From a virus: DNA of 64,000 nucleotides. Shown piece after piece: positions 6,198 through 34,121 of the stretch; the stretch's first letter is position 1; each line of letters opens with the position of its first letter. Location: the UHGV virus genome UHGV-1351772; one strand, written 5' to 3'. The notes beneath the pieces are model-generated. The model did not search any database and was not told the origin of the DNA. It saw only the letters and a program-made list of their open reading frames with translations. Position numbers and translations under genes: made by a program.

Positions 6198-6346
6198 CTA
6201 AGCCCTCCAGTGGTAGTATGTCTATTACGCAATACCCGAGTTAATCGTACGGGTTTACTGCTGAGTTTCAAGTCACCGGTAGGCAATGGCGCGGTGGGTT
6301 CTATACCCTGAATGTCCGTTTGACCGTGAAATAAATGGAGCAATCA

Positions 6347-7234: not shown

Positions 7235-7255
7235 AAACGACCGGAGTCACCTGCA

Positions 7256-11304: not shown

Positions 11305-11314
11305 CCCCCCCCCC
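11305..11314. repeat. homopolymeric C10 tract (G10 on the minus strand), intergenic
   Basis: Ten consecutive C read directly; lies about 50 nt upstream of the minus-strand start at 11256. Confidence 0.9.
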
Positions 11315-11322
11315 GACTTTAA

Positions 11323-11853
11323 TTATTCTTTAGGAGACGGTGCGGTGAAGCCATCCAGTTCACCTTCCAAACCGCTCAGTGCTACTTTCTCAGGAGCCGG
11401 AGGAGTAACTTTATACGTCGCGACAGTACCAGGCAGGAACTTCAAGTGGCCAGCCACAACCGTTACCACGTAAATGGTTTTGCCTTCTTCTTCACGGGAA
11501 ATAGTTTGCAGGTCGTTTTCACCGAACTCGTCATCGGTGTACCCTTTCTCAGCCATGGCTGCGTTAACTTTCGCCAGGATCTTCGTTGGTGAATCGAAAT
11601 CGGTAGTAGGTGCAGTTACTTCAACTTCACCAACGATGTCGCAGGAAAGACGAGTATAGTGGAATTCTTTCTCGCCTTTGAAGTTCTGGCTTTCTGCCTT
11701 GGCGGTCAGAGTAATTTTAGTGTTGCGGCCAGCTTCTCCGGTGAACTCAGCGACAGCACTAAAATTAACATCATTTACAGTCAGCTTAGAAGCAGTTTGG
11801 TTGTTTTTAGCAATTACAATCTCGATAAGCTGCTGTTGAAAAGTTTTAGCCAT
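11323..11853 (-). CDS. hypothetical protein, small-protein paralog family (member 2 of 6)
   Basis: 176 aa tandem paralog of 10726..11256. Confidence 0.6.
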   Translation of the reverse strand: MAKTFQQQLIEIVIAKNNQTASKLTVNDVNFSAVAEFTGEAGRNTKITLTAKAESQNFKGEKEFHYTRLSCDIVGEVEVTAPTTDFDSPTKILAKVNAAMAEKGYTDDEFGENDLQTISREEEGKTIYVVTVVAGHLKFLPGTVATYKVTPPAPEKVALSGLEGELDGFTAPSPKE

Positions 11854-14520: not shown

Positions 14521-15018
14521 TTACTTGGATTTTCGTGCACGAGTTGTACGTGCTTTAGCTGCTTTTGGCGCAGGTTCAGCATCTTCAGCAGTTTTACGTG
14601 CAACGCGCACCGTAAAACCGCCTACCCAGGTTAAACATTCAGGGCGGAAGAAAATACCGTGTTCGATTGCGCTACCGTCTAACGGTAACTCGCCGACCTG
14701 CTCTACCCACACGTCGTCTTCTGTAAGGGTTAGGCTGTACTGCTCGTTAATGACGGGCAGTAAGTCAGCGGTAGTCGTTGCAGATTCTACCAACAGCTTC
14801 GGTAATACGTTCAGGAAATATAAACCTGCGTCAATGCGGTTATACTGGAACGTTTGTTCGTTAGTGTAACCGAGATTCTTAATTGACGCAACCGTAATTT
14901 CGGTATTGTAAGTACCGGTGGTCACAACCGGATCGCCCAGCGTGACTTTGGCGGTGTCAAGCTCAGCGTCTGGGTTAGCCTTTTTAATAAGGTCGAAGAT
15001 AGTTTCTTGACTGGTCAT
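14521..15018 (-). CDS. hypothetical protein, small-protein paralog family (member 3 of 6)
   Basis: 165 aa; N-terminal (I/L)xxLI(K/N)...TxxDV pattern and ADLL..IN..Y.L block shared with 15032..15880. Confidence 0.55.
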   Translation of the reverse strand: MTSQETIFDLIKKANPDAELDTAKVTLGDPVVTTGTYNTEITVASIKNLGYTNEQTFQYNRIDAGLYFLNVLPKLLVESATTTADLLPVINEQYSLTLTEDDVWVEQVGELPLDGSAIEHGIFFRPECLTWVGGFTVRVARKTAEDAEPAPKAAKARTTRARKSK

Positions 15019-15031: not shown

Positions 15032-15880
15032 TTAATCTAAGAATCCCGGTAAGACCGAATTAGTTTTAGCTAATTCAATCTTCGACTTTGGACGATCGGT
15101 ACCGTTAAAATGGATTAACAGATTACCGGTCAGGTTAGAACACAACGGGCTGAGCGTCAGCACCAACACACGTGTGAACTTCGTATTTGCGCCTTCGAAA
15201 CCTGCGGTAGGACCATCGTAGATAACCTTAGCACCGTACAGGTTATTAGCAGCGTTCTTAGGTACACTTACCCATTTCTCGTCAACGACGTTATCCAGCT
15301 TAGTAGCTAACTCAGCCAGGTCGACGGTGTCGTTAATGGTAATCGGATCGAGGTAATCTTTTTCTGCGGTGAAGTCAATTGGGTAAGAATAAACTGCAGC
15401 GTTACCTTTCTTAGTGGACGGATACTCTACCAGGTTTTCTAATTGAGTAACAGGTAACAATTTAGCCAGATCAATAGGGTCGCGTAGCGTGAGTGTCACC
15501 TCGCCACACCATTCGTAGGATTTCTCGTTAGCGGTAAGCTGATGGGTTTCACCTTCAACTTTCGCATCAATGATATCCGACGGCAGAATATTTAAATCGT
15601 ATTTTGCGTTGATTGCATTAAGCAAATCTGCAGCGGTTACAACACCGTCGTTACCGAATACCAACTCACCTGTTAGGTATTCGGGCAAATTACGACGATG
15701 ATAAGTCACAGTTAAAGTAGTAGACTCATCGCCTTTGAGTTTAGAAGTCAGAACCACCTGGGTATCAACCCCAGTACCAGTAGGTTCGCCGATATCAACA
15801 TCACTGAAGGTCAATGGCGGAACAATATTGTTTTCAGTGTTGATGAGTTTTAGCAGTTTCTGTTTTGACGTAAGAGACAT
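15032..15880 (-). CDS. hypothetical protein, small-protein paralog family (member 4 of 6, extended)
   Basis: 282 aa; LTFSDVDIG and AADLLNAINAKYDL blocks. Confidence 0.55.
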   Translation of the reverse strand: MSLTSKQKLLKLINTENNIVPPLTFSDVDIGEPTGTGVDTQVVLTSKLKGDESTTLTVTYHRRNLPEYLTGELVFGNDGVVTAADLLNAINAKYDLNILPSDIIDAKVEGETHQLTANEKSYEWCGEVTLTLRDPIDLAKLLPVTQLENLVEYPSTKKGNAAVYSYPIDFTAEKDYLDPITINDTVDLAELATKLDNVVDEKWVSVPKNAANNLYGAKVIYDGPTAGFEGANTKFTRVLVLTLSPLCSNLTGNLLIHFNGTDRPKSKIELAKTNSVLPGFLD

Positions 15881-20795: not shown

Positions 20796-21077
20796 TCACA
20801 GTTTCTCTTCTATTGTATCTAATCGAACTAACGCATCGTGACTGACTTTCCGTGCGTGTCCGATTGTCCCACCGAGGGCTTTTGTTGTTGGGTCTAAGGT
20901 ATTCAGACGGTGATACTGATAATCGATATCACGTATACAACGCGCCTGTTGTTTTACCATCCGAATTAATTGTCGTTTGGTTTGACGATTGTTACTAAGC
21001 TCCTGCCGTAATCGCGTGTTTTCTTTATAAAGCTCCTGTTGACGTGAGTTAATTAAACCCAACAACCAATCTAACAT
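20796..21077 (-). CDS. hypothetical protein
   Basis: 93-aa ORF, basic, predicted helical. Confidence 0.45.
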   Translation of the reverse strand: MLDWLLGLINSRQQELYKENTRLRQELSNNRQTKRQLIRMVKQQARCIRDIDYQYHRLNTLDPTTKALGGTIGHARKVSHDALVRLDTIEEKL

Positions 21078-21079
21078 TT

Positions 21080-21595
21080 TTACCCCCGGTGCAAGAAAAT
21101 ACGGTTAGTGTTTTCGAATTTCGGTTCTGTCCACTCCAGTTCCCAGTAAGCCTGGTTAATATCGCGAGACGTGAGTTTCAAATTCGAAACGCCGGGGATT
21201 TCGATCTGCTGCAGTAAATTAATAATCGTCACCAGCTCTTTACGAGGACGGTTCCAGATAACTTCAAGATACTCTTTCAGACGCTCTGGGTAAGCAACGG
21301 GGCGAATATAAACTAGCCCAGTGGGATACTCAATTGCTGAGGGTGTTCTTGGCACTAACCAAACCCAGTCTTTTAATAGCGGCCCTGAGTGGTAGTTAGA
21401 GAGTTGAGTAAGCGCATTTGCGACCGAACAACAACGGAAGTAGGTGATATCCCAATCGTGTTCATGGCAATTTCGCGCAACGATAACTTTTAAACGGTCA
21501 ATAGGTTTACCGTCGATGGTCGTAACACCAGGTTGATTCGCCAGAATCTGACGTTCACGTTTAGTATAAAGATTCATGTTAATATTTACTGACAT
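21080..21595 (-). CDS. hypothetical protein
   Basis: 171-aa ORF; GGAG RBS upstream of the start. Confidence 0.5.
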   Translation of the reverse strand: MSVNINMNLYTKRERQILANQPGVTTIDGKPIDRLKVIVARNCHEHDWDITYFRCCSVANALTQLSNYHSGPLLKDWVWLVPRTPSAIEYPTGLVYIRPVAYPERLKEYLEVIWNRPRKELVTIINLLQQIEIPGVSNLKLTSRDINQAYWELEWTEPKFENTNRIFLHRG

Positions 21596-21621
21596 TTAAT
21601 GCTCCTTTAGGTAAATGGTGT

Positions 21622-21631
21622 GGGGGGGGGG
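21622..21631. repeat. homopolymeric G10 tract (C10 on the minus strand), intergenic
   Basis: Ten consecutive G read directly; about 27 nt upstream of the minus-strand start at 21595. Confidence 0.9.
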
Positions 21632-21646
21632 TAGGTTAATGCTTCG

Positions 21647-22489
21647 TTATTTAAGATTCTGAATTTCTCTCATCTCGTTACAAAACTTATCAAACAACTG
21701 GGCGTATTTGTCAATGTGATTTTCGAACTCCCCAAAAAGGTGGCGTGAAAGGCGTTCGCTGACTTCCTTTTCGTATTTCTCGAGAACGTGTTTAAAAGAT
21801 TCACTGTCTCTCTTAATTTTCTTCGCATGGGTTTCCAAAGTTTTAAGAAGTCGTGGTTCGTTTTTGATCAGGAGATGCAAGTCACCTTTAAGATATCTGC
21901 TTTGATAAATCATTATTTTGGCGAGCTTGTATTCACCTTTCACAACACTGATAAGCTCATCAGCACCGGCTTCTGTAATGTTTTCAACGGTAAATAGCAG
22001 AATATTTTCGCCCTCTATATCTTTCAATAGTTGATTTATAGGAGCTCGATAAGCAGTATATTCATTGCTCACTTTAAGCATGTTGTCTTCAATCACATAC
22101 GTGAATTTATCGCTGAAAAAATGGTATAGTATTGGTCCAATTTTATCTGCTTGTTTGGGGGTAAGTGGGAACTCCTTTGTGTAGTAAGCGTTGCCTTTCG
22201 TAGTTGGCTTGTCCTTTAGCCCACAAGTCGACTGTTCTGGTAATTCTGGATCTTTAGACACCTCAACAGATCGTACTAAAATATCCGTAATCGCACTAAT
22301 GAGTTTGTTAGGAAAATCGACATCACCTTCTACCCAGAAAATGTTAAATGATTCTGATTTAACTTTATAGTAAAAGGTGTACGTTTTTTGTAGTTCAGCG
22401 ATTTCCTTAATTTGTTTTTCAGTAGGGATAGGGGAGATCTTAAACCTGCTGATGACTTTTTCTTCTTCGGTGAGTTCGAACTGTAACAT
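21647..22489 (-). CDS. hypothetical protein
   Basis: 280-aa ORF. Confidence 0.5.
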   Translation of the reverse strand: MLQFELTEEEKVISRFKISPIPTEKQIKEIAELQKTYTFYYKVKSESFNIFWVEGDVDFPNKLISAITDILVRSVEVSKDPELPEQSTCGLKDKPTTKGNAYYTKEFPLTPKQADKIGPILYHFFSDKFTYVIEDNMLKVSNEYTAYRAPINQLLKDIEGENILLFTVENITEAGADELISVVKGEYKLAKIMIYQSRYLKGDLHLLIKNEPRLLKTLETHAKKIKRDSESFKHVLEKYEKEVSERLSRHLFGEFENHIDKYAQLFDKFCNEMREIQNLK

Positions 22490-22500
22490 GTTATAGTTCC

Positions 22501-22944
22501 TTAAATCATACCTGGGAATTCGAAATCGATTTTATCTAAAAGTTTGTAGTCGTCTTTTAGTTGAAGCATTAGCGTATTCTTAAACAGTTCAAGTGAACCG
22601 ATAAAGTAAGCCGTATAGCAGCTACCACGAACAGAAGAGGAAAGACCCAAGTCTCTTAAACACTGTTTCAAGATTTCATGTTCTTCAGCGGTACCGAAAA
22701 GTTGGAAATTGATAACGGTAATCTGTTTATTAATGATTGCCGATAACCATTCTTTAATTCTTCTCGTGGTTATACGTTCTTTGAAATCACTAGCTTCTGG
22801 CAACCAGGTAATGTGAACAAACGGTGCATCGTAATCCACGAGAACTTTCTGCTGCCAACGTACTTGCATCAAACCACGAATACGATTTGCTAACGTTTCA
22901 GAATCACAAAGTAACATAATGCCGTTGGTAGTATTTGGTTTCAT
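22501..22944 (-). CDS. hypothetical protein
   Basis: 147-aa ORF. Confidence 0.5.
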   Translation of the reverse strand: MKPNTTNGIMLLCDSETLANRIRGLMQVRWQQKVLVDYDAPFVHITWLPEASDFKERITTRRIKEWLSAIINKQITVINFQLFGTAEEHEILKQCLRDLGLSSSVRGSCYTAYFIGSLELFKNTLMLQLKDDYKLLDKIDFEFPGMI

Positions 22945-23792
22945 AATTGTCCTTCCTTCTTAATGTAATCTTCAACCAACTTATCAAACACGATTTTTAT
23001 CTTCTCGCGTTCTTCTTCACCCAATTCACCGGAACAGGTTAGTCCGTTTATCTTCCCATACCGTAACTCCAACACATATTTCAACCGATGACGTAAGGCT
23101 TGATCAAAATGCGTTGGAATATAGATCGGTTCGAAATTGTGCAATAAAATAAAATTGTCTTCGGTGTGTTTAGGGGGTTCGAATTTTACTTTATCTAAGA
23201 TAGTAAGCCAGCGTTGTCTGTCGACTAACCGATCGTCCCAATAAACAGGTTTTGTTTTAGAGGGGGTAAATGTGTTGTAGTTACTGGAATCGGAGATACG
23301 GAAATTTGCTGTGACATAAGTCTTCGTGAGTAACGAGAGAAGACAAATCGTTCCTTCTTCGGAGTAACTTAAACCCTCGTCGAGTATGTCCTTAGCTTTC
23401 TTGAAGTAGTCCTCAATATAGTTTTCAGCAATTGGTTGAATCTCTACTTCTATAGCGCTAATTTGAGGCCCGTCTATCCGTAAAGGAAATTTTAGTTCAC
23501 CAATATATTGCCTATCCGATGTATAAGCACGCGTAACAATAGGGTACGTAACAGGCTTAGCCAAATGACGATATTCACCAACCCTAATGACTGCGGAACG
23601 TCCAAAGTCACCTTTATTCGATTTTGAAAAACCGTAAAGGTCTTTTAGATACTCTAGATACTGACCATCCGTCATTTCATCGGTATTAAATTCACGAATG
23701 TATAGTCGATTAAAAGATCCTTCTGTTTGTTCGTAGTAATAACCAGGGTCCCTATTTGCTAGAATGTGCGGGAGATAATACGGGTGATACAT
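22941..23792 (-). CDS. hypothetical protein
   Basis: 283-aa ORF; AAAGGAGGA RBS upstream of the start. Confidence 0.55.
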   Translation of the reverse strand: MYHPYYLPHILANRDPGYYYEQTEGSFNRLYIREFNTDEMTDGQYLEYLKDLYGFSKSNKGDFGRSAVIRVGEYRHLAKPVTYPIVTRAYTSDRQYIGELKFPLRIDGPQISAIEVEIQPIAENYIEDYFKKAKDILDEGLSYSEEGTICLLSLLTKTYVTANFRISDSSNYNTFTPSKTKPVYWDDRLVDRQRWLTILDKVKFEPPKHTEDNFILLHNFEPIYIPTHFDQALRHRLKYVLELRYGKINGLTCSGELGEEEREKIKIVFDKLVEDYIKKEGQL

Positions 23793-23820
23793 CTAATCCT
23801 CCTTTAGGCTATAACTAATG

Positions 23821-23870
23821 GAGTGAATGTAAATTTCACTCTCTCCTAGGTAATATATATCTGAGAAAAA
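23821..23870 (-). promoter_or_regulatory. conserved promoter-like motif with 5' hairpin (copy 2 of 4)
   Basis: CAGATATATATTACCTAGG on the minus strand followed by hairpin GAGTGAA/TTCACTC; sits between a terminator and the gene start at 23792. Confidence 0.5.
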
Positions 23871-23908
23871 ATATAAAAACCGTAGGATGGACTAAGTCCA
23901 TCCTACGG
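23871..23908 (-). terminator. rho-independent terminator of the tailspike transcript (minus strand)
   Basis: 12-bp stem CCGTAGGATGGA / TCCATCCTACGG followed on the minus strand by a T-run. Confidence 0.7.
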
Positions 23909-23914
23909 TTTAAA

Positions 23915-26041
23915 TTAAATAACTACCCAGCTTTTACCATCAGAGCCAATCTGCATTAGCGTAATACTTTCATTGGTCTCAATGGGTTTGGCAAGACCTT
24001 CCGTCCCACTCTTTGGAGTGATGAGAACGTTTGAGTTTTCCGGTTTAACGATGATCTTACCAGCCTTATTTGCCACGATCTGTATATTTCTACCCACACT
24101 ATATTCTAGATCAGGAATAGTAAGTTGGCCGCCACGGTTGGTGGCTGGGAAATACACATAAGACGACACATCTTCCTCAGATAACACTATACCACCAGAA
24201 TCACGATTGACCGAGATCTCAAACTTAGAAATATCGATATCGTAGGCAGTAACTTTCGTAATATCCGTCAGAACCAATTCGTTCAAATTGGTCTTAGCTG
24301 TACTGTTCGCCAGATCAAATGGGGTACCTTCCGTACCGTCAAGCACAGGCGTGACTTTGATTTTATTGTCACCCGGATAAATGATTTCAAACGTATGCCA
24401 GTTATTATCGTACGCACCAAAAGATCCTAATTGCACATTCTGCTTTTTATGATGCATCAGATAAAGATTCGTACCGTCGGTCTGTAAGAAAAAAGACATT
24501 AAGTACGGGTTCGTATCAGCCACACCAGCGTCAGCAAGTGTAGTACCAGAAGGTAGGTCGGACGCGGAAATACGCCAATAAAGTCCTAATCCGAAACGAT
24601 CTGCTGCTAAATCACCTTTTAGTCTAAAAGTAACGGTCAGACGTCCACCGTAACGTATCATGTCCGCAGCAGATGTCATTGACTTAGTTACATTCCAAGG
24701 TTTCATCGTTACAGCCTTTCTTAATTCGACGAAATGCCCGTTTCCATCCTCAGAATCTTGCACGGTTACGTTACAATCAACGATATTGTTCCAACCCTGC
24801 CCTTTCAGGGAACCATCTCCACGACGTCCGTTATAACCCACAGACTCTACTAATGGGGTATAGCTTCTTACCACATTCATATTGTCTTTGAGCTCTTTAG
24901 TGTCGTTCTTCGTCAGGAGCATTGCACCATTCGCTGTTCTTGATAATATCTCAGCAGCTATTCTCTCTGAGATAATACCGCGTCGTGCCCAAGAACTGAA
25001 ATGGCTATTCCTTGTTTCAGACGTCCAGTTTTTATTACTACGGGTGGCAGCACCGTAGTAGGCAGCACCAGCGATATCAGGATCGTCAGTGGGATCATTA
25101 GTCGGTACACGTTGGCCATTATCGTCGTACATGAATGGAACAAAAAAGATATTTTTTTGTTCATTGTTACGATAATTACCGTATATGGTTTCATATTGAA
25201 CAGGATATTTTTCCTTCCAATAGTAGGTAGTGTCCCCGCAGATCCATGGTACTTCGGCGGTGTCGTACTCGGGCATCTGAGAGAGATGGTCAGAGAGATC
25301 AGTTCGGAAACGCTCTACCATTGCCATAAATAACGCTGGTTGTTGTGCGTAACCTACTTTAGTCAGATCATACTCCCCCTGCATCCACACTACAGCCAAG
25401 AGTTTATTTTTAGGATTAACGTCCAGAGCTTTTTTGGTCCGGCTAACTAAATCTTTATAAAGAGGTTTTTCCACCCCCCATACCGATGACGTCGCAGAGG
25501 CTCCTGTGGCTTCATCGAAGGTACCTTCTGCACCACCCGTGAAAGCAGAACCGCCGCGTGCGCAGGGTACTAGTAAGATACCAGCGTTGCTAGGAATATA
25601 CGGGAGAAGACGCTTCGCGATGTGTAGACCTTGACCCACACATCCGTATTCACCTTTGTCCAAATTGGCTTTGGGGTGCGAGAATACGGACATATCTTGC
25701 ACGTCGTGCAGACAGTGATCCGCTGGAATGACGTCGTTATACTTACAATCAGCACCATTAGGCGTTACCTTCGCACGGCGCGCCATTTGTTTAATCCGCG
25801 GATCGGGAGCGTCCAACGTCGCTGGTAAAGGCAATCCTTCACCATAACTCATCGCATTAGATTGCCCGGCTATAGGGATCACGAAGTAATAATCCGGTTC
25901 CGTCACCCCCCCCCCTTGAAGTTCTGCAATATCAATTTTATATTCTTTTTCTTCCTTAGAAAGGAGAACTACCGCACCTTTGAGATCGCCAGAGAAATTG
26001 TCGAGTTCATGGATACGTTTCTTTCCAATTGGTTGAACCAT
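23915..26041 (-). CDS. tailspike/tail-fibre protein with sialate-O-acetylesterase-like (SASA/SGNH) domain
   Basis: GGAGGT RBS before the ATG at 26041 (track start 26053 is TTG); N-terminal 40 aa homologous to the N-terminus of the 1519-aa fibre; GQSNAM esterase motif. Confidence 0.65.
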   Translation of the reverse strand: MVQPIGKKRIHELDNFSGDLKGAVVLLSKEEKEYKIDIAELQGGGVTEPDYYFVIPIAGQSNAMSYGEGLPLPATLDAPDPRIKQMARRAKVTPNGADCKYNDVIPADHCLHDVQDMSVFSHPKANLDKGEYGCVGQGLHIAKRLLPYIPSNAGILLVPCARGGSAFTGGAEGTFDEATGASATSSVWGVEKPLYKDLVSRTKKALDVNPKNKLLAVVWMQGEYDLTKVGYAQQPALFMAMVERFRTDLSDHLSQMPEYDTAEVPWICGDTTYYWKEKYPVQYETIYGNYRNNEQKNIFFVPFMYDDNGQRVPTNDPTDDPDIAGAAYYGAATRSNKNWTSETRNSHFSSWARRGIISERIAAEILSRTANGAMLLTKNDTKELKDNMNVVRSYTPLVESVGYNGRRGDGSLKGQGWNNIVDCNVTVQDSEDGNGHFVELRKAVTMKPWNVTKSMTSAADMIRYGGRLTVTFRLKGDLAADRFGLGLYWRISASDLPSGTTLADAGVADTNPYLMSFFLQTDGTNLYLMHHKKQNVQLGSFGAYDNNWHTFEIIYPGDNKIKVTPVLDGTEGTPFDLANSTAKTNLNELVLTDITKVTAYDIDISKFEISVNRDSGGIVLSEEDVSSYVYFPATNRGGQLTIPDLEYSVGRNIQIVANKAGKIIVKPENSNVLITPKSGTEGLAKPIETNESITLMQIGSDGKSWVVI
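25906..25915. repeat. homopolymeric C10 tract (G10 in the mRNA) inside the tailspike coding sequence
   Basis: Ten consecutive C read directly; encodes GGG plus the first base of Val at codons 43-46, at the junction between anchor and enzymatic domain. Confidence 0.9.
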
Positions 26042-26076
26042 TGTAACCTCCAATTTTTAAACCAATACTCTTCCGG

Positions 26077-26349
26077 TTAGCGCGACATACCGTTCTGTGA
26101 TAAGGCAGTACCAACGATAAGTTTAACCGGGGTTTGTTCTTCCGTAATAGGGATTTCATCGAGATTGTTGATATCAATAGTAACATCATGGACTTTAGGC
26201 ATTGTTACCAAGATAGTCAACATTACCACCGATGCTTTTGTGGAAGTATCCGCAACGTGATATTTAACGTCCAGTAATTCGTTACTTTCAGATAAGTAGA
26301 GCATTTGCGGATAGATTGTTATCGATGTAAAAAAAAATACCAACACCAC
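26077..26349 (-). CDS. hypothetical protein
   Basis: 90-aa ORF between fibre-module genes. Confidence 0.4.
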   Translation of the reverse strand: MVLVFFFTSITIYPQMLYLSESNELLDVKYHVADTSTKASVVMLTILVTMPKVHDVTIDINNLDEIPITEEQTPVKLIVGTALSQNGMSR

Positions 26350-26363
26350 TTAAGTTTTAGCCA

Positions 26364-26879
26364 TTAATGATCTCCGAAGGTTAATGCACAATTATCTGCG
26401 GTAACGATTAAATCGTCGTCTTTTGTTACTGCGGCTTCTTCACCGTTACCGAAAACCAGAACAGAGAATTGACCTTTATAACCTAATGAACCAGGCGATA
26501 CCTGCAACGTTACCGCGTCTTTTCCTACAGTAAATGAATCATCTGTTAGATCTTCAGCTTGTAAGTTACTGCCACAAGCTGCGTTAATCGCTTCGATTAA
26601 ATCGTGTGTGGTAAACCCTTCCCCGGCTACTTTTACCAGAATAGGTTGCTGGTTTAACCACCGCTCTGCGGTTAAACGGTTGTAATAGATCTGCAACGTT
26701 CTGTTTCCAGGACGCTTAATCTTTACAACGGCAGTGGTGTCACGATTCATCTCTTCAGTAGGATTTACGTTGCTGAACTCAACCTCGTTTTCTTGCAGAT
26801 CGAGCTGAAGGTCGTGGTTGATCAGCGATATAACCATGTTAGTTGAAGTTAATGATAAATCTGGTGTGAATTGCCCCAT
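26364..26879 (-). CDS. hypothetical protein, small-protein paralog family (member 5 of 6)
   Basis: GGAGGT RBS before the ATG at 26879 (track start 26894 lies in the RBS); N-terminus FTPDLSLTS...ISLINHD parallels 33100..33660. Confidence 0.55.
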   Translation of the reverse strand: MGQFTPDLSLTSTNMVISLINHDLQLDLQENEVEFSNVNPTEEMNRDTTAVVKIKRPGNRTLQIYYNRLTAERWLNQQPILVKVAGEGFTTHDLIEAINAACGSNLQAEDLTDDSFTVGKDAVTLQVSPGSLGYKGQFSVLVFGNGEEAAVTKDDDLIVTADNCALTFGDH

Positions 26880-26977
26880 AAAGTTTACCTCCAACGGTTA
26901 GGGGAGTCATAAAATGTTGGCTAAAACATTTCACCCCTCCCCCGATTATGTTTTCAAGCACTATGACTTGAAAATAA

Positions 26978-27481
26978 TTAGCTAATTCTCAAATCACGTA
27001 GTGCGCCTGTTGACTTCATCACGTTTTGGAACGCAGCGCTGATGTTATTAGTCCAGTAATAATGCTGACCGTTAATAACTTGCTGGTAAGACAGCGCGCA
27101 GGTGTTGCCACCTAAGTTTACAGTGATGTTAGAGGCTCTGCCGCCTTGTAAGTAAACCGCTAAAGTAGGCTTTGCGTTAGCAACTACCGTCGTTAACTGT
27201 AACTCGATACCTACTAAAGTTCCCACCCCGCAGTTACCAGCGTTTTGAATGGTTCCCTGATTTTTCTGGTTTAACGGCCAGCTTGGTCCTACTGCGCCCC
27301 ATTTCTTACCTAAAGAATCGCTATATGCAGCGGTTGCAATTTTACAGCCCATAGATCGTCCCACCATTTGACTCATCATAAAAGGTCTACCCAATCCTAA
27401 TTTACTACCCGCAGCGCTCATCCATTGTTGGCCAGTTTCATTCCTAGCTGAAGATCCGACCCATCCTGACGCTACCCCCAT
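26978..27481 (-). CDS. glycine-rich protein (short paralog of 27498..28280)
   Basis: GGAGGG RBS; N-terminus GWVGSSARNETGQQWMS matches GWIGSSAKAEAGNGWMS of the neighbour. Confidence 0.55.
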   Translation of the reverse strand: MGVASGWVGSSARNETGQQWMSAAGSKLGLGRPFMMSQMVGRSMGCKIATAAYSDSLGKKWGAVGPSWPLNQKNQGTIQNAGNCGVGTLVGIELQLTTVVANAKPTLAVYLQGGRASNITVNLGGNTCALSYQQVINGQHYYWTNNISAAFQNVMKSTGALRDLRIS

Positions 27482-27497
27482 CTACCCTCCTTTTTAA

Positions 27498-28280
27498 TTA
27501 AACACGTGAACCGTATATTGCACCTACTGCGTCCCATCTTGGCGCATTACCAGTAACAGCTGCACCAGCTGCTCCGCCGTTATATTCTGTACCGTTACCT
27601 TGAGTATTACATCTTCCTCCACCAGCACCGACATTACCACCCGAACCGCCTGTATATGCACTAAGAGACCCCTCACCAACAGATCCTCTACCAGGAGCGG
27701 AAATAGTACCAGCAGCCGCACCGGAACTCATATGAGAGGAAGACCCACCAGCACCGAATGGGCGACCACCGCCACCACCAAATATTAGTCTACCCCTGTT
27801 ACCGCCGCCACCGCCACCACCGCCTCCGGCAATAGCGCCACGGTTGGTTATACGCAGTCTGTTTCCTATTCCGTTCTGTATTGCGGTTCCACCTGCACCG
27901 CCTGGTGAGTTAGAACCGCCGTTGCCTCCTCTGCCGTATACTGTAACCCCAGGATTGATGATGAGGGTAATATACGAATTTGGAAGATTGCTAGGGAACT
28001 CTAAACAAGGAACCCCGCTACTATAAGACACTAAATCCCCTGTAATGGTCACAACGACAGCAGTAGAGCCTATGGAACGTAAATAGTTAATAAGCGTATC
28101 TTTATTGTAATTGTGATTAGCCCCGATCGAATACTGAGCCTCTTTTGATTTTCCCGCCAATTGCGACATCCAGCCTGGGACCGGCACACCAAGTGTGCGC
28201 ATCGCGCCAGACATCCAACCGTTACCAGCTTCAGCTTTTGCTGAAGAACCAATCCATCCGGGAGTCGCTGATACAGACAA
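27498..28280 (-). CDS. glycine-rich protein with poly-Gly segments (possible fibre-associated structural protein)
   Basis: Probable TTG start at 28280 after AGGTGG RBS (the track ORF runs to 28331 with no RBS); G9 and G5 runs plus GGxGG repeats. Confidence 0.5.
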   Translation of the reverse strand: MSVSATPGWIGSSAKAEAGNGWMSGAMRTLGVPVPGWMSQLAGKSKEAQYSIGANHNYNKDTLINYLRSIGSTAVVVTITGDLVSYSSGVPCLEFPSNLPNSYITLIINPGVTVYGRGGNGGSNSPGGAGGTAIQNGIGNRLRITNRGAIAGGGGGGGGGNRGRLIFGGGGGRPFGAGGSSSHMSSGAAAGTISAPGRGSVGEGSLSAYTGGSGGNVGAGGGRCNTQGNGTEYNGGAAGAAVTGNAPRWDAVGAIYGSRV

Positions 28281-28337
28281 AATAACCACCTTATAACGTA
28301 CTTGTGAGTCAGTGAGGGGGTTTCCCCTCACTGATAA

Positions 28338-31300
28338 TTATAACTTGGTCTCAATTATCTCCGACAACTCCTTTATTGCCTCAATAAGTAGAGCTATTTG
28401 GGCAGAGTTAGAGACCGTCAAAACGTCCTCACCATTAGCGTCTTTATAAGTAGAAACTGCTTCAGGTAACACTTTTTGTAAGGTCTGCGCTACAACACCA
28501 GCCTCACGATGAACATTAGTGGATTTAAAGTTCTCCTTTTTGTCGTATATTAAACCTGACAATTTCTTTACCTTCTCCAATGCATTAGTTATTGGAGAGA
28601 AATTACTTTTCAGTCGGGCGTCTGATCGTATATAAACGTCGTTAAAGTTACCGTTTCCACCACAAACCCAAGTACCGTCGTTTTGCAAATAAGCATTACC
28701 GTCAGTGCCATTATCAGTACGTGAGTTGTTTATCATGTAAAAGCCAAATTGACTGTTACCTAAACCACCAACAAAATATTTCCTATCAGCATGGTCTTGT
28801 CTTAACAATGCCTGAGCAGAACTAGTTCCTACCTTATTAAGACCAAAAATAACGTTATGGTCTCTCATGCTAATCCAAGAACCTGAGTTGCTGTTAATAG
28901 AATATCTATTTGCATAAACCCAAGTATTGGTTCTTATATCTCCGGTAACGTTGAGAGGTTTATTGCTTTGAACAGCCCCACTCGTAAAGCGTAAAACATG
29001 AGCATTATTGGCGTAAACATCTAGAACACCATCCCCGTTCTGCTTAAGGCCGGTGTCATTATCCCCTAAAACTATAGAGTTCCCGCCTAAAGCATTAGGG
29101 GTTCCAATACCCAATGCCCCATTCAATTGACCGCCAGATAATGGCAACGCCCCAACATCCGCAGCAGTTGGCTTGTTTCTCGTATTGTACACGCGACGCC
29201 AACCTGGTGAGTAAGCATCGCCGTTAAATACGTAGATAAACTCCGCATTAGTGAGTGCGCCGGAGACGCTCGTCGTTGTGGCGGTCGTTATACGGATCGT
29301 GTAGTTGTTTGTGCTATTGCCATTACTAATCACTTCTATAACGGCCCCAGCTAACGGAATAGCCCCACAACCCGTCTCGCTGTGTGGTATGTGCGCACTA
29401 GCGGCATAAGCCCACGCACAACGAGCAACCCACGATCTTGTGGTAAACGCGCCGTTATTTTTCAATAACGTCACTAGCTGTGCTGTAGTTATTGCAGCGC
29501 CATCAGCGCCAGTTTCTAACCAACCACTAGGCGATGCCGGGCAACCTATATCGGCAGGCCCTAACGATATATTTCTAGTGCCGTCAAATGCGATACCGTT
29601 AATGGTACGAGCTGTCTGCAACTTTGTGGCCGTGGCTGCGTTTCCGGTAGTCGACTGATTACCCGTCTGGTTTACACCAGGTAAACTGATGTCTTTAGTA
29701 CCATCAAAAGCCACACCGCCTATATTTCGCGCAGTCTGAAGTTTAGTCGCTGTCGCAGCATTACCTGTCGTATTCTGGTTGCCTTGCTGGTTAACCCCCG
29801 GTAAATTGATATCCCCAGTACCGTCAAACGTAACCCCACCAATTCTGCGAGCGGTTTTCAGTTTCGTCGCGGTAGCGGCGTTGCCGGTAGTATCTTGATT
29901 ACCTGTGGTATTTACGCCAGGAATGCTGTCACGGGCAGTATAAACTTGTGCCCAATCTGACCACGGCGCATCCGCTGTATCACGTCGACTACGAATATAA
30001 ACGGGTGCGTGCGCACCACTCGTCCCCGACCATCCGATTAACAACTCACCTTCACCTAGCGCAGTAGCGCCACCCAAATGCAGTAAGTTACCATAAGCGG
30101 TAGGATAACCGTTATTGTAAACTTCGTACATCTGAATACCAGGCGTACCTTTGTTTGAACCGGTTAGTGCAGTAACCCGACCACGACCCACCAAGGTGTT
30201 GATATTGATGTCAGCAGAACCATCGAATCTCACACCGTTAATATTTCTGGCAGTTTGAAGTTTAGTGGCTGTACCGGCATTACCCGTGGTGTTTTGATTA
30301 CCTTGTTGGTTAACACCCGGGAGGTTAATATCACCACTGCCGTCGAAAGCGACTCCACCAATTCTACGTGCGGTCTTTAATTTCGTTGCGGTTGAAGCAT
30401 TGCCGGTTAACTCGCCTGCTAACCCTTTTGCAAAGGTCTGTTTTTCTGCCCAGGTGTGTGCTGCATTCAATACAGGCATCTGGCGCGGTGTAATCGTACG
30501 ACTACCTTTCTCACCAGCGATACGTACTGCAAAGAATCGATAGTTGGCAGTAGACACCGTACTACGCCAAACCAACATACTCCGGGCTGAGGATGCGCCA
30601 TCTGATGGACCAACCAGAATGCTAACTAGGTTACCGTCAATAACACCCCAATCCATTCCCGTAGGAATGTTTTTCATGGTGTTAAGCGGCGTACAGATTA
30701 ACTCACCTGGTTTAAAGTCATAGGTTTGCCAGTCTAAAGGATCAACATTCGCACGTTCACCGCCGATACCTAATACCAGCGGAAGCGAATACGATGTGAA
30801 AACCTCACGCCAATCGCTCCAAGCGTTACCCGTACGGATACGTTGGAATTTACGACCTTTAGTTTCTACACCCGTACCGTATGTAGTATAATTCTGTTCG
30901 ACCCCTGTACCGTCTAAGCGTAAGGTAACTTCACAAACACCTAATATGGTTTCACCAGAAGAACCGGTAAGTGGGCCATTAGTTGCTTCACCAGTGACAC
31001 TGAAACGTCCCGGTTTAACGAGATCGTTAAAATTGGCTTTAAAGAAAGCACCGTCAGTCTGATAACCAACCTGAATCCAATCTTCCCATTGCGGGTTTGA
31101 TGAATCCCACGTTGCGGTCAAACCACGAACATACATCGTACCACGACGTGTGGTGTATCGTTGCAACCGTCCGAAAAGACCACCTTCCATTACTTCTAGT
31201 ACGCCTTGCGCGCCACCACCTTCTTCAGGGTAATGTCTGCTAAAAACAGCCAGCGAACTGGACGAGTTTCGCCAGTTACCCATATGCTCAGCGCCACCCA

Positions 31301-32897
31301 GAGAGTTCAAGTCTATAGAGGTAGATAACGGACGTACACCAGTAGTTACCATTCTCCACGGTGACCAGGGTCCATTGGCACCATTCCACGCACCTGACAA
31401 CATACGGTTGTACACGTTACCATTACGACAGGTAAAACGTTGCGCACCGCTGTAATTACCGGCTTTATACACTTCCAGATAACCGACCGCACCGTCTTCT
31501 GGGAAGTGTTTTGCCATCGACGCATTGGTTGACGTCGACTTAGCCCACGTTCCTGTGTAATTGGCATCTGGAGCAAATGTGTTAATATCGGCATCCGCAG
31601 GCATTTCACCACGGAAACGCAGATAGGTGTCAGGCGATAGACCGATATTGCGGGCAAACGTTTCTTTATCTGGGATATCAGCGCCGTTAGAGTTTTTCTG
31701 TAACGCGCTATTCGCTTTATCTACAGTGGCTTTTAATCCCAAGAAATTGATGATATCCGCAGTTGTCCCTTTCGCTAACAGGGTTCTGGCTGTTTCTGTA
31801 AAGTCAGTTAATCCGACTTTATTAGCACCGGTGAAATAGGGGAGCTTGTTTGCTGCGGATGTGACTGCGGCAATAGCGGTGAGTAGCGGACTGATAGGTT
31901 GCTTCTGCGCAAGTTTCTCAGTAATCGTAGTCGCGAAGTTAGGGTCATTACCTAACGCCTCGGCTAATTCCGCTAAGGTATCTAACGTTTCAGGTGAAGA
32001 CCCAACCAATTCCGCAATCGCGGCACGCACCCAAGCCGTTGTGGAGATGCTCGTGTCGTTTGAATCTTTCGGGGGTGTTGGTGACGTCGGCTTACCCGTA
32101 AAATTCGGCGAATGTTTGTTAGCCTTTAACTGTAGTTCGTCATTCAACTGCTTAACTGTAGACGGTGTAGCAGCCTCCGTCACGGATTCGCTAGTCAGGG
32201 TATTGTTAAGTTTAACGATACCTTTACCAGTCGTACTAGCGTCGATTAAGCCCTGTGCAGCGATTTTCTCCGCACGCAGTGCAGCTGATTCCGAGCGCGT
32301 AGCTGCGCCTTCTGAGCTTTCTTTATCTTTCGTGACCTGCGCAGCAACCTTTTCCACTGCGCCCTTACTGGCCTCAACTGAAGCTGCGGTATTTGCGATA
32401 CTGGTAGCCGTCTGTTGTACTTGCCCGGCTTTTTGCGTAACCGTTTCTGCTTTCTTAGTTACATCAGCCGCTGCAGCCGTCACCGATTGTTCGCTTGTAG
32501 CGATAGCTTGAGCTTTCTCATTTACCGACTGTAATACAGTATCTACGGCAGTTTTCGCGGCTAAAACTTCAGCGTGTTTTTTGCTAACCTCAGCAGTTTT
32601 AGTGGCAACGGTTCCCGCTTGCTCGCTAACTGTGGAAGCTAACGTGTCAGTTTGTTGCTTCGCTGTTTCTGCTAAGTCTTTTGCTTGTGTGGCTTCTGTT
32701 GCAGACTGTTGCGATTTGGCCGCCGCCGTTTGTGCGTCAGCAACCGCGTTTCTGACGGTGTCAATATCCGCAACAATCTCGCGGACAGGTAACTGATAAT
32801 CCCTTTCGTCTTTCGAAAAAAGTAAAACGCCTTCACCGATATCCCCGGTGTATGGACGTAAATCGTGTAAACGAATTTTCTTTACCGCTTTAGCCAT
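28338..32897 (-). CDS. long tail fibre protein with C-terminal intramolecular-chaperone (peptidase S74-like) domain
   Basis: 1519 aa; repeated TGNAxTATKLxTAR(N/R)I(G/N)GVxFDG units; C-terminal SDARLKSNF motif typical of self-cleaving chaperone domains. Confidence 0.75.
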   Translation of the reverse strand: MAKAVKKIRLHDLRPYTGDIGEGVLLFSKDERDYQLPVREIVADIDTVRNAVADAQTAAAKSQQSATEATQAKDLAETAKQQTDTLASTVSEQAGTVATKTAEVSKKHAEVLAAKTAVDTVLQSVNEKAQAIATSEQSVTAAAADVTKKAETVTQKAGQVQQTATSIANTAASVEASKGAVEKVAAQVTKDKESSEGAATRSESAALRAEKIAAQGLIDASTTGKGIVKLNNTLTSESVTEAATPSTVKQLNDELQLKANKHSPNFTGKPTSPTPPKDSNDTSISTTAWVRAAIAELVGSSPETLDTLAELAEALGNDPNFATTITEKLAQKQPISPLLTAIAAVTSAANKLPYFTGANKVGLTDFTETARTLLAKGTTADIINFLGLKATVDKANSALQKNSNGADIPDKETFARNIGLSPDTYLRFRGEMPADADINTFAPDANYTGTWAKSTSTNASMAKHFPEDGAVGYLEVYKAGNYSGAQRFTCRNGNVYNRMLSGAWNGANGPWSPWRMVTTGVRPLSTSIDLNSLGGAEHMGNWRNSSSSLAVFSRHYPEEGGGAQGVLEVMEGGLFGRLQRYTTRRGTMYVRGLTATWDSSNPQWEDWIQVGYQTDGAFFKANFNDLVKPGRFSVTGEATNGPLTGSSGETILGVCEVTLRLDGTGVEQNYTTYGTGVETKGRKFQRIRTGNAWSDWREVFTSYSLPLVLGIGGERANVDPLDWQTYDFKPGELICTPLNTMKNIPTGMDWGVIDGNLVSILVGPSDGASSARSMLVWRSTVSTANYRFFAVRIAGEKGSRTITPRQMPVLNAAHTWAEKQTFAKGLAGELTGNASTATKLKTARRIGGVAFDGSGDINLPGVNQQGNQNTTGNAGTATKLQTARNINGVRFDGSADININTLVGRGRVTALTGSNKGTPGIQMYEVYNNGYPTAYGNLLHLGGATALGEGELLIGWSGTSGAHAPVYIRSRRDTADAPWSDWAQVYTARDSIPGVNTTGNQDTTGNAATATKLKTARRIGGVTFDGTGDINLPGVNQQGNQNTTGNAATATKLQTARNIGGVAFDGTKDISLPGVNQTGNQSTTGNAATATKLQTARTINGIAFDGTRNISLGPADIGCPASPSGWLETGADGAAITTAQLVTLLKNNGAFTTRSWVARCAWAYAASAHIPHSETGCGAIPLAGAVIEVISNGNSTNNYTIRITTATTTSVSGALTNAEFIYVFNGDAYSPGWRRVYNTRNKPTAADVGALPLSGGQLNGALGIGTPNALGGNSIVLGDNDTGLKQNGDGVLDVYANNAHVLRFTSGAVQSNKPLNVTGDIRTNTWVYANRYSINSNSGSWISMRDHNVIFGLNKVGTSSAQALLRQDHADRKYFVGGLGNSQFGFYMINNSRTDNGTDGNAYLQNDGTWVCGGNGNFNDVYIRSDARLKSNFSPITNALEKVKKLSGLIYDKKENFKSTNVHREAGVVAQTLQKVLPEAVSTYKDANGEDVLTVSNSAQIALLIEAIKELSEIIETKL
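29560..29940 (-). repeat. tandem about 120-nt coding repeats within the fibre gene (three copies)
   Basis: Nucleotide and protein repeats (TATKLQTAR..NG..FDG) read directly. Confidence 0.7.
30180..30410 (-). repeat. second block of the same fibre repeat (two copies)
   Basis: Same repeat unit as 29560..29940, separated by about 240 nt of unique sequence. Confidence 0.65.
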
Positions 32898-33099
32898 GAT
32901 ATTTAATTCTCTATCGGGAGCTAAAAGATCTGAGGAAGTGTTTTACCCCTCAACATTTTTATAAGCGGATTATTATACTGGTTTTAATCCATCATCTTCT
33001 AACGTGAAAGTGATGCCCAACTCCGCGCTTCATGATTTGGGATTGTTAAGTTTTGATAAAAGTTTGCTTTGGCCTCCATTACCGGTAAAACGGTCAAGT

Positions 33100-33660
33100 T
33101 CATGTAGCCGGGTTTTCTTCAACTGAGTCGTCATCTGGAACCTCAAAGGTAAGAACAGCATCATCACCAATACAGAAGATCGCATCATCTTCGTTTGCTA
33201 ATGCTCGTTCTGTTGTATCGAATAACGTTACCATAAACGCATTCATCCACGCAGGAGAATCGTCAGCAACGTTAACAGCAATGGGTTCGTTACCTAAGGT
33301 GATATCTGCAGCACGTAAATCTTCGGGTTGTAAGTTCGTTCCGCAGAATTCATTTACAACACCTAAAATGTCACGAAGGTTGTCTTCAGTACCGTCTAAC
33401 GAAATCAAAATAGGTTCAGACGCTAACACTTCGTCCGCATCCAAACGGTCGTAATAAACAACCACAGAAGCACCATCAGGTTTCCTGATTTTTGTAATCT
33501 CTGTCAGTGTGTTACGACGCGAAGTGGTCGGGGACGGGTTTGCCATAGTGTTGCTAATACGGATTTCGTTTAGAGACAACCGTGAACCGTTATCGTGGTT
33601 GATTAAAGCGACCACCAATTCGGCTGAGGCCAGACTTAAATCAGGTACGTAAGTAGTCAC
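33100..33660 (-). CDS. hypothetical protein, small-protein paralog family (member 6 of 6)
   Basis: Probable GTG start at 33660 after GGGAGG RBS (track start 33693 runs into the terminator hairpin); paralog of 26364..26879. Confidence 0.5.
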   Translation of the reverse strand: MTTYVPDLSLASAELVVALINHDNGSRLSLNEIRISNTMANPSPTTSRRNTLTEITKIRKPDGASVVVYYDRLDADEVLASEPILISLDGTEDNLRDILGVVNEFCGTNLQPEDLRAADITLGNEPIAVNVADDSPAWMNAFMVTLFDTTERALANEDDAIFCIGDDAVLTFEVPDDDSVEENPAT

Positions 33661-33671: not shown

Positions 33672-33720
33672 AGATCAAAAAAAAATAAAACACCTACCGC
33701 CCATAGAATCGGGCGGTAGG
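33672..33720 (-). terminator. rho-independent terminator (minus strand)
   Basis: Stem CCTACCGCCC / GGGCGGTAGG followed by T9 on the minus strand. Confidence 0.65.
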
Positions 33721-33746
33721 CGGTCATTTTACAGCTAAATATCAAA

Positions 33747-34121
33747 TCAGACCGTTAGTTCTCCACATAACTCAACGTCGATACCGAACGTCATTCCCAC
33801 TTCTTGAAGTTTGTTCGCCAGTAGGTGACGATGACAAAACTTACCTGCGGGACAATAGCACATCAAAACCAAATCTTCGTGTCTAAGCAACGAGACCAAC
33901 GTTTCGGCATCGGTATCTAACAGTCGTTCGAGTTTGTACAAATACTTTACCGTGTATTCACGCTCAGCGGCAGCGTCTTGGGCAGAATTTTTATACGCCA
34001 TTAAGAAATCCCAGTCGGGGGCGAGTTCCTTTCGCCCTGACTTCACAGTGATATCCACTGCGTGAAATCCTTTTTGCTTAGCTAACCGCCACTTAGCGAG
34101 TTGTAGCGTCCAGATACGCAT
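33747..34121 (-). CDS. DUF488-like protein
   Basis: C-terminal CYCPAGKFCHRHLLA resembles the conserved C-x-C...CHR motif recalled for DUF488; low certainty. Confidence 0.4.
   Translation of the reverse strand: MRIWTLQLAKWRLAKQKGFHAVDITVKSGRKELAPDWDFLMAYKNSAQDAAAEREYTVKYLYKLERLLDTDAETLVSLLRHEDLVLMCYCPAGKFCHRHLLANKLQEVGMTFGIDVELCGELTV

Follow-up and report, generated by a model that had tools for sequence, protein, structure and literature searches.

The island and its shared N-terminal anchor

The DNA analysed here, called the window, comprises 64,000 nucleotides (nt) of the UHGV virus genome UHGV-1351772, given as one strand from 5' to 3', and all coordinates refer to it. The segment from 23.9 to 33.7 kb is best explained as a hypervariable receptor-binding island of an uncultivated ~225-kb jumbo phage that is SPN3US-like (Seoulvirus-related). 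The genes of the island all lie on the minus strand and are bracketed by two strong terminators (Table 1). Two of them, encoding a long fibre and a predicted sialate O-acetylesterase, begin with a homologous segment of ~42 residues, termed the anchor, and remnants of two further anchor genes lie beside them.

Table 1. Features of the island in order of transcription (aa, amino acids; ORF, open reading frame; HMM, hidden Markov model; E, expectation value)
Feature	Position	Strand	Basis or remark
DUF488 gene	33747-34121	-	first in transcription order, precedes the island
Terminator-like hairpin, strong (13-bp stem + T run)	33691..33722	-	closes the DUF488 gene, just upstream of the island
DUF7941 paralog 1, N-terminal domain + short acidic tail with conserved IGDDAVLTF motif	33100..33660	-	
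Remnant of a third anchor gene (SPN3US gp123-type small adaptor), 34-codon ORF MTTQLKKTRLHELDRFTGNGGQ...	33030..33134	-	
Long fibre, 1519 aa	28338..32897	-	
Fibre anchor, residues 1-42	32772..32897	-	BLASTP, anchor HMM
Peptidase_S74 intramolecular chaperone, fibre residues 1425-1519	28341..28625	-	Pfam PF13884, E 4e-15
Canonical gp38 tip adhesin (Gp38_N + GP38 with poly-Gly motifs)	27498..28331	-	
Second, alternative tip adhesin (Gp38_N + different C-terminal domain)	26978..27481	-	
DUF7941 paralog 2, 171 aa from ATG	26364..26879	-	
Remains of a '206-aa type' anchor gene	26077..26364	-	phrog_33169, E 1.7e-5; comparison with relatives
Anchor-esterase fusion, 708 aa	23915..26041	-	
Esterase anchor, residues 1-42	25916..26041	-	BLASTP, anchor HMM
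G10 homopolymer (C10 on + strand) at the anchor/enzyme joint	25906..25915	-	GGG linker + first base of Val46
Terminator-like hairpin, strong (16-bp stem + T run)	23877..23911	-	directly after the esterase stop, closes the island

A sequence-only reading of the window had proposed that fibre and esterase share an N-terminal anchor and differ in everything beyond it. Both ORFs are present on the minus strand (28338..32897, 1519 aa; 23915..26053, 712 aa when read from a TTG), and the peptides quoted in that reading occur verbatim in their translations. BLASTP of the full-length proteins returns a single significant high-scoring segment pair (HSP), with an E of 9e-7, in which residues 5-45 of the esterase (712-aa numbering) align without gaps to residues 1-41 of the fibre with 14/41 identical (34%) and 29/41 positive (71%) positions; with the 100-aa N-termini E falls to 3e-9. 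The Smith-Waterman score of the two N-termini is 86, as against a mean of 21.5, a standard deviation of 4.2 and a maximum of 53 in 20,000 shuffles (z = 15). The homology, which the reading had made dependent on a proper alignment of the N-termini being significant, is therefore borne out. All other HSPs have E > 2, so that the distal parts of these two proteins are unrelated and only their N-termini are homologous. For the esterase, ATG 26041 (MVQPIGKK..., with GGAGG 7 nt upstream) is a more likely start than TTG 26053, judging from these sequence signals, and public gene calls agree on the 708-aa product. With this start both anchors stand at residue 1.

The consensus of the anchor, M-A-x-x-V-K-K-K-R-L-H-E-L-x-x-F-x-G-D-...-V-x-L-x-S-K-D-E-K-E-Y-Q-L-P-x-x-E-L, extends over ~42 residues and is followed by a Gly-rich linker or a coiled coil. 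When ten anchors are aligned, K7, R9, H11, L13, L26 and Y34 are invariant or nearly so, while S28 and K29 are invariant only in a six-sequence profile. Identity between anchors of different classes is 31-64%, and the two anchors of the window (~33%) lie at the lowest end of the family. Searched by tblastn with either anchor, the phage collection yields matches only in the first ~45 codons of a single gene in each genome, among SPN3US-like phages that infect Salmonella, Erwinia and Proteus and include SPN3US, Asesino, SPAsTU and SNUABM29. The matched gene of SPN3US is SPN3US_0123 (gp123, 156 aa), located upstream of SPN3US_0124, which encodes a ~1000-aa 'tail-associated protein'; the matched gene is preceded in every case by a DUF7941 gene (SPN3US_0122) whose stop overlaps its start. 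In Felixounavirus phages the fibre anchor has weak matches (E 0.1-0.9), which lie in the C-terminus of an early 176-aa protein and were rejected as chance. An exhaustive HMMER search of 1.84 billion (1.84e9) representative proteins with the six-sequence profile gives about 16 clusters, each matched at residues 1-45, with protein lengths of 133-1494 aa; weaker matches with several internal stretches look repetitive and unrelated, judging by their pattern. The distribution found by tblastn and HMMER implies that the anchor is a genuine short module, found at the N-terminus alone and within a single phage clade. A word-indexed protein search with the anchor profile returned short fragments only, and the anchor has no match in Pfam. 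The family is new and is absent from the Pfam and PDB copies searched.

Other ORFs of the window match jumbo-phage structural, internal-head and polymerase families. The kinship to SPN3US is only distant, radical-SAM genes being 72% identical at the DNA level, and the island DNA has no match among the isolates of the phage collection except at gp38. Two radical-SAM genes and their neighbours (6335-9485) show the only clear DNA similarity (72-73%) to SPN3US-like phages within the first 25 kb of the window. A gene for a 280-aa protein at 21647-22489 is present also in four related contigs (L011, L022, L023, L032) and absent from three others (L015, L017, L005).

Distal modules and their turnover

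Behind its anchor (residues 1-42) and a GGG linker, the esterase consists of a NanS-like SASA catalytic domain (~45-366) with a GQSN motif, a NanS-p lectin-like DUF6645 domain (~402-612) and an extra beta-rich C-terminal domain (617-708) that is common to the Salmonella prophage versions. The body matches PDB entries 3PT5 (E. coli NanS; E 1e-121, residues 45-366) and 6YP6 (C-terminal domain of NanS-p; E 3e-36, residues 402-612) and the Pfam families PF03629 (SASA) and PF20350 (DUF6645; E 7e-29). It is ~50% identical to the homologues of Stx phages and phage 434, and the motif (G59 Q60 S61 N62) is invariant in 33 homologues. Of the earlier labels 'esterase tailspike' and 'SASA esterase', the enzyme part holds by virtue of PF03629 and 3PT5, while the tailspike part must be dropped, as the protein is a NanS/NanS-p homologue and not a beta-helix tailspike.

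Homology with NanS-p of phage 434 and Stx phages starts only at ~EPDYYF (residue ~52). A tblastn alignment with phages 434 and 2B8 (query 9-616) seemed to span the anchor and was discarded, since at residue level there is no identity before ~52. A Pfam search for DUF1737 (PF08410) gives no match in the esterase, and the anchor sits in its place. Among the homologues scanned for domains, a set to which 434 itself does not belong, N-termini of the DUF1737 type are seen; others are lambda-Stf-like (PF08400) with a coiled coil, as in P0014, or of further kinds. By its domain content the protein is a NanS-p-type sialate O-acetylesterase in which the anchor has taken the place of the usual capsid-binding DUF1737. 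Because the homologues carry DUF1737, PF08400 or the anchor, the enzyme can be seen as cargo that is tethered by differing ~50-residue modules in different phages. The known substrates of NanS and NanS-p are O-acetylated sialic acids of mucus; in gp84 of phi24B, DUF1737 binds capsid hexons and the enzyme is cleaved off later, and mucin use and mucus adherence have been proposed as roles of this NanS-p (10.64898/2026.04.10.717836).

The fibre runs from the anchor (1-42) through an Ala-rich coiled coil, a Phage_fiber_2 repeat, a shaft that is 55-64% identical to P2 H / P1 S and a gp37-like distal part to the C-terminal Peptidase_S74 domain, which confirms its earlier description as a repeat fibre with a chaperone (Phage_fiber_2; PF13884). 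The features of a T2-type tip are present, namely the C-terminal chaperone and a downstream gp38 gene (PF13884, PF21721, PF05268). A gp37 N-terminus for joining gp36, as in the long fibre of the T4 type, was not found in the fibre: its first 400 aa consist of the anchor, the coiled coil and Phage_fiber_2, and the best T-even fibre matches span only residues about 380-1516. In T2 gp37 and in proteins with endosialidase-type chaperones, the chaperone trimerises the fibre and is then cut off, and gp38 caps the tip. By analogy, the S74 chaperone of the present fibre is expected to be cleaved off by its own activity, exposing the tip for gp38.

Two gp38-type genes follow the fibre gene. At the DNA level the canonical one shares 77-90% identity with gp38 of T-even phages, e.g. 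Krischvirus RB49, and the product of the second shares 59-63% with the 'Gp38' adhesin known from Stx phages (P13374, 75/02 Stx, phi191); Gp38_N is found in both (E 3e-20 and 4e-11). The pair forms a second level of shared N-terminus and different distal domain, their Gp38_N segments being 45% identical over 47 aa (E 2e-9). Relatives have one or two such adhesin genes, with products of 212-277 aa and 167-180 aa. In L006 (19207) the second adhesin starts with ATG GGG GGG GTA, a G8 run encoding MGGVASGW where the window has MGVASGW, i.e. an in-frame 3-nt expansion of a G run at the start of another receptor-binding protein (RBP) gene.

The locus was compared with that of relatives known as ~220-228-kb metagenomic contigs (L labels). 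At the same locus of related ~225-kb phages the same anchor heads at least eight unrelated distal modules, and the esterase body in turn is found behind quite different virion-binding N-termini, DUF1737 and lambda-Stf-like PF08400. The modular exchange proposed in the sequence-only reading is thus well supported. The modules are: an adaptor of 153-158 aa (gp123 type, the anchor plus a 110-aa domain), which is followed by a ~1000-aa tail protein; the ~1500-aa fibre, itself a mosaic in its distal end and in its chaperone; a 206-aa protein with a 160-aa domain behind the anchor; the esterase of 706/708 aa; a 709/710-aa protein with FN3 and propeller-like parts, accompanied by a DUF4376 partner; and proteins of 273, 188 and 133 aa. 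Their presence and arrangement vary among close relatives. In L006 and L007 the adaptor, the 1000-aa protein and the fibre are accompanied by a third anchor gene, and in L029 and L036 a second anchor gene comes after a 207-aa protein. The place directly behind DUF7941 paralog 2 is taken by the esterase in L032-35 and by the 206-aa gene in L005 and L011. The distal modules are borrowed from unrelated phages.

The window itself retains traces of this turnover. The adaptor remnant keeps anchor positions 1-26 (anchor HMM E 9e-8; also found by tblastn), and in comparison with L006 the rest of the adaptor gene and the gene of the ~1000-aa tail protein are missing, a deletion of 3.4 kb. The 206-type gene, intact in L005, L010, L011, L029 and P0136, is reduced in the window to a start codon coupled to the DUF7941 stop (TAATG), followed by three codons and a stop; its last ~85 codons persist as a 90-aa ORF, while the anchor and the N-terminal half are deleted. 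These two remnants and the locus comparison give direct comparative support for modular exchange. Within the 206-type remnant lies a T9 run (minus strand, 26329-26337); the remnant is called as 75 aa in L023, L026 and L028 and as 89 aa in L015, L024 and L017, and a difference in the length of the T run is a possible cause.

The guanine tract at the anchor-esterase joint

Anchor and enzyme are joined by the sequence CAA GGG GGG GGG GTG, which contains a run of ten guanines (G10), and the fused 708-aa protein reads ...AELQGGGVTEPD... across the joint. A single frame of 708/712 aa requires G10. This length is found in L023-L028 and in the window; L020, also G10, represents the window's own genome and is left out of the counts. 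With G9 (L015, L017, L018, L019) the anchor ORF ends at a TGA after QGGG (45 aa) and an esterase ORF of 663 aa begins at an overlapping GTG (GTGA). With G11 (L021, L022) the anchor ORF is 61 aa long and uncoupled from the 663-aa esterase ORF. Of the 13 public contigs whose joint was read, 6 have anchor and enzyme in different frames. Comparison of L018 (G9) with the window haplotype (G10) gives 0/996 mismatches in the flanks, and that of L019 (G9) with L021 (G11) gives 0/652 downstream and 1/400 upstream. Tract length is independent of haplotype. Two marks of a contingency locus are present, namely a coding homopolymer of at least 8 bases whose length shifts the frame and a length polymorphism on otherwise identical flanks. 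Diverged relatives that lack the tract read CAG GGC GTG/ACG in the fused frame, which implies that the fusion is the designed product.

G/C runs of 7-9 are absent from the window, but there are three of exactly 10, two of which are intergenic. The codon GGG makes up 17% of the Gly codons, and other members of the family use mixed codons for the same Gly linker. In the relatives, further G/C runs of 8-11 also vary in length and are often part of G10-loop-CCTCCCC hairpins. A search with the joint region found no match in complete E. coli genomes, PLSDB plasmids, GTDB genomes or IMG/VR. As far as found, the separation of an anchor from its cargo by a homopolymer is new.

Of the two intergenic runs, that at 11305-11314 forms a G10-TAAC-CTCCCC hairpin right after the stop of the ORF 11323-11853. 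The other, at 21622-21631, lies 26 nt upstream of the ORF 21080-21595, is C9 in L022 and, as a C10 tract, adjoins the downstream boundary of the 280-aa gene at 21647-22489. In relatives, similar runs of G8-G11 precede the fibre gene and DUF7941 paralog 2.

It is tentatively proposed, as a possibility that we consider to be on the doubtful side, that the tract is a true contingency locus which toggles progeny between the three states and so hedges bets on virion decoration and on host or mucus range. G10 would give virions with a tail-tethered sialate esterase. With G9, the 45-aa anchor would be made as a peptide of its own, able perhaps to cap the attachment site, and re-initiation at the overlapping GTGA would yield an esterase without anchor; in the G11 state no anchor-coupled translation of the esterase would take place. 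Such switching might be favoured if the phage replicates in a proteinaceous nucleus beyond the reach of host mismatch repair, as its affinity with SPN3US and DUF7941 would suggest. The Gly linker typical of the family may have been the raw material for the tract.

Attachment, function and known systems

Each of the two gene clusters is headed by a DUF7941 paralog. Both paralogs match PF25613 (E 1e-17 to 1e-18, model positions 3-153; paralog 1 with E 1e-18) and phrog_1037, and they are only 34% identical to each other. Paralog 1, which also matches phrog_2935 and was aligned with its counterparts in SPN3US and Asesino, has a likely GTG start that gives 186 aa, the length also called in relatives, and is syntenic with SPN3US gp122. 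DUF7941 and the next gene are coupled from stop to start, by overlapping coordinates in SPN3US, SPAsTU, SNUABM29, L005 and L011 and by TAATG in the window. Conserved synteny, this coupling and co-duplication with the anchor genes make the DUF7941 proteins the obvious candidates for a socket. A DUF7941 profile matches the PDB weakly at 9xqd, a phiKZ baseplate entry, in the chain PHIKZ127 (E 0.11), and a 2026 preprint models phiKZ gp127 in the baseplate, proposes that the family decorates the baseplate periphery and proposes that the N-terminal domain of DUF7941 accepts the docking segment of a partner. In SPN3US, gp123 (16.5 kDa) and gp124 are low-abundance proteins of purified virions that are not marked 'Head' (PMC5694885 Table S1). 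The AlphaFold2 model of paralog 1 (mean predicted local distance difference test score, pLDDT, 46) is too poor for a fold search. The single common attachment site of the sequence-only reading does not follow from these data, as two diverged DUF7941 paralogs fit two sockets as well as one.

The window encodes further proteins of this kind elsewhere. A full-length gp127-like protein of 282 aa lies at 15032-15880 (phrog_1037, E 6e-64), further members of the family at 14521-15018 and 53966-54493, and tandem 176-aa paralogs at 10726-11256 and 11323-11853 have marginal similarity to DUF7941 (E 0.14 and 2.8). In the close relative L011 (IMGVR_UViG_3300029126_000001, 6217-8151), a 470-aa domain with a match to the tail-fibre family phrog_13714 (E 3e-181) is fused in front of DUF7941 paralog 2. 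The resulting protein has 644 aa with DUF7941 at the C-terminus, the opposite order to the N-terminal DUF7941 fusions described for Goslar.

The explanation that accounts best for the whole, and one that we regard as probable, is an island of one portable anchor with borrowed distal modules and a switching joint. The anchor would be a plug that fastens proteins to the tail or the baseplate periphery, as suggested by its carrier gp123 being a low-copy virion protein of SPN3US outside the listed head proteins. The socket may be the small DUF7941 protein upstream of each cluster, or a site that DUF7941 helps to build. Once the fibre has trimerised and S74 has been cleaved off, its tip would bind one or the other gp38-type adhesin and thereby acquire its specificity for a protein receptor. 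In the vicinity of the tail, the tethered esterase would bind and deacetylate O-acetylated sialoglycans or a bacterial polysaccharide with similar acetylation. Slippage of the polymerase on the G tract would switch progeny between the fused enzyme (G10) and uncoupled forms (G9/G11), the latter yielding an anchor-only peptide and an anchorless esterase that is separately initiated or left untranslated. The dual receptor specificity claimed earlier is not established by this arrangement, given the substrates of NanS and NanS-p, the out-of-frame anchors and the two gp38-type adhesins. Since these two adhesins differ, the specificities may also exceed two.

Several observations weigh against this explanation. 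The anchor profile has only chance matches in the PDB (Elongin C, MazG; E 0.3-0.5) and no similarity to 9xqd. The esterase anchor is disordered in the AlphaFold monomer model (pLDDT 25-28), which is compatible with folding upon binding or oligomerisation and could equally reflect a thin alignment. The DUF7941 protein gp122 is undetected in wild-type virions of SPN3US, and paralog family B of that phage, to which gp122 possibly belongs, is classed as a head family since it persists in a tailless mutant; this classing is at odds with the position of phiKZ gp127 in the baseplate. Mimicry of the DUF7941 docking linker by the anchor finds no support in the sequence, as hhalign gives a probability of 0.1% against a 12-sequence DUF7941 alignment (Goslar gp22/23/31/33/34 with window and SPN3US proteins). 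In L037 one anchor gene, for a 273-aa protein, is not preceded by DUF7941. A bacterial receptor as substrate of the esterase is unproven. For the switching joint, tract lengths come from assemblies, i.e. consensus contigs, and not from reads, and the public record of the window's genome (L020, CYGL01000001.1) differs from the window at 20922-27758 by 8 single-base indels and 0 substitutions. The indels, most of them outside homopolymers, would disrupt the reading frames of DUF7941, of the gp38-like gene and of the esterase in L020, and this record thus appears to carry indel errors.

Four other explanations need to be weighed. The same anchor family could serve no common site, the DUF7941 paralogs heading two paralogous plug-and-socket sets (paralog 1 with the adaptor and the fibre, paralog 2 with the 206-aa protein and the esterase), in which case fibre and esterase would sit at different positions and not compete. 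The divergence of the two paralogs, each with its own cluster, the coupling of DUF7941 to the following anchor gene and the proposed acceptance of a partner's docking segment all fit such an arrangement, and anchors are somewhat more alike within a cluster than between clusters (esterase/206-type 50% vs esterase/fibre 33%; fibre/adaptor 48% vs fibre/206-type 40%). The cluster signal is weak, however: the esterase anchor is equally near to those of Asesino (55%) and SPN3US (48%), and paralog 2 is closely similar, by eye, whichever anchor type comes next. The absence of gp122 from wild-type virions and the L037 gene count here as well, and we consider two separate sockets rather unlikely. It is much less likely still that the N-terminal module is not a structural plug at all and acts as an assembly, chaperone-recognition or targeting tag, or is a neutral leftover of a local 5'-end duplication. 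Its disorder in the monomer model and its lack of a structural homologue would agree with this, and DUF7941, judging by gp122, could be a non-virion assembly factor. Yet K7, R9, H11, L13, L26 and the near-invariant Y34 are kept across eight protein classes at 30-60% overall identity, which argues for selection and not for a leftover, and gp123, which consists only of the anchor and a 110-aa domain, is nevertheless a virion protein. A conserved N-terminus with exchangeable distal parts is moreover the standard layout of phage attachment domains.

The role of the esterase and the reality of the tract lengths can each be questioned in a similar way. The esterase could be an accessory enzyme directed at mucus or glycans, tethered for mucus adherence or released on lysis, through which the phage would gain no second host receptor. 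NanS and NanS-p are its closest relatives, the phi24B homologue is capsid-borne, is cleaved off and has proposed roles in mucus, and the G9 and G11 alleles uncouple the anchor in the six contigs mentioned. Against these points stand three diverged tract-free relatives that keep the fused frame and the homologue P0014, whose lambda-Stf-type tail-fibre N-terminus with coiled coil makes it a true fibre-borne esterase. Tail-fibre esterases that deacetylate, e.g. G7C gp63.1, are known as receptor-modifying RBPs. An accessory role remains credible, if somewhat improbable. As for the tract, the differences between G9, G10 and G11 could be assembly or sequencing artefacts in a phage that always makes the fused 708-aa protein, and besides the consensus contigs and the L020 indels the break of contig L016 exactly at the tract would suit this. 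The three lengths recur, however, across independent runs and assemblers (megahit ENA assemblies, Logan contigs), G9 in four contigs of two haplotypes and G11 in two contigs, and the other G/C tracts of the same contigs also range from 8 to 11. Illumina consensus errors are uncommon at 9-11-mers, and an artefact seems unlikely.

On the preferred explanation of a portable anchor with exchangeable modules, the short anchor offers a practical handle for host-range engineering in SPN3US-like jumbo phages, whose tail periphery is still unresolved by cryo-EM. The NanS-p esterase emerges as a movable cargo on a capsid-binding DUF1737, a lambda-Stf-like N-terminus or the anchor, and the tract is a testable example of a homopolymer that uncouples cargo from attachment module. 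For the debate on whether DUF7941 proteins are head proteins or baseplate filaments, the locus adds the question of whether the small ones are anchor sockets.

The architecture itself is of a known kind. Conserved N-terminal adaptors with exchangeable distal parts, one of which can be a deacetylating esterase, are found in G7C gp63.1/gp66, in TSP1-4 of CBA120/Vi01, in SP6/K1-5 and in Klebsiella depolymerase phages. In contrast to these branched or multi-RBP systems, the present anchor is much shorter and of an unrelated family, the esterase belongs to the SASA/NanS and not the SGNH type, and a homopolymer lies at the joint. The tip of the T2 long tail fibre has the same C-terminal S74 chaperone with gp38 (Gp38_N + GP38) directly downstream, whereas here a P2/P1-like shaft and a jumbo-phage anchor replace the gp36 joint and two adhesins share one Gp38_N. 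The fibres of the chimallivirus phiKZ are also several proteins with a homologous N-terminal attachment segment that differ distally; the N-terminal domains of the paralogs gp131/133/134/135 are docked under gp130 in the outer baseplate (PMC13250141). Those fibres sit at the baseplate periphery and their distal parts are paralogous, while the present anchor of ~42 aa carries imports from unrelated phages and has no detectable sequence similarity to them, its profile finding no PDB chain. The gp131-like proteins of SPN3US are a separate set (gp168-170).

The closest parallel for the cargo is phi24B gp84 (DUF1737-SASA-lectin; 10.64898/2026.04.10.717836), which has the same catalytic and lectin domains, a ~50-aa N-terminal virion-binding module, a flexible linker and enzyme cargo, and occurs in tethered and released forms. 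It differs in that a fibre anchor here takes the place of DUF1737, an extra C-terminal domain is present and uncoupling would occur by frameshift, as opposed to proteolysis in phi24B. For the tract, hypermutable poly-G tracts in RBP genes of Campylobacter phages (Sorensen 2021, cited in PMC10877375) and the contingency loci of T2/T4 (PMC12633550) are comparable as in-gene homopolymers whose change in length switches the frame, and repeats of coliphages have been reported to be under-represented in tail-fibre genes. The present tract, in an enterobacterial jumbo phage, stands at a domain joint and separates the anchor from its cargo with no simple truncation. New in this comparison are the family to which the anchor belongs, the fact that a NanS-p esterase has been recruited to it and the homopolymer at the junction.

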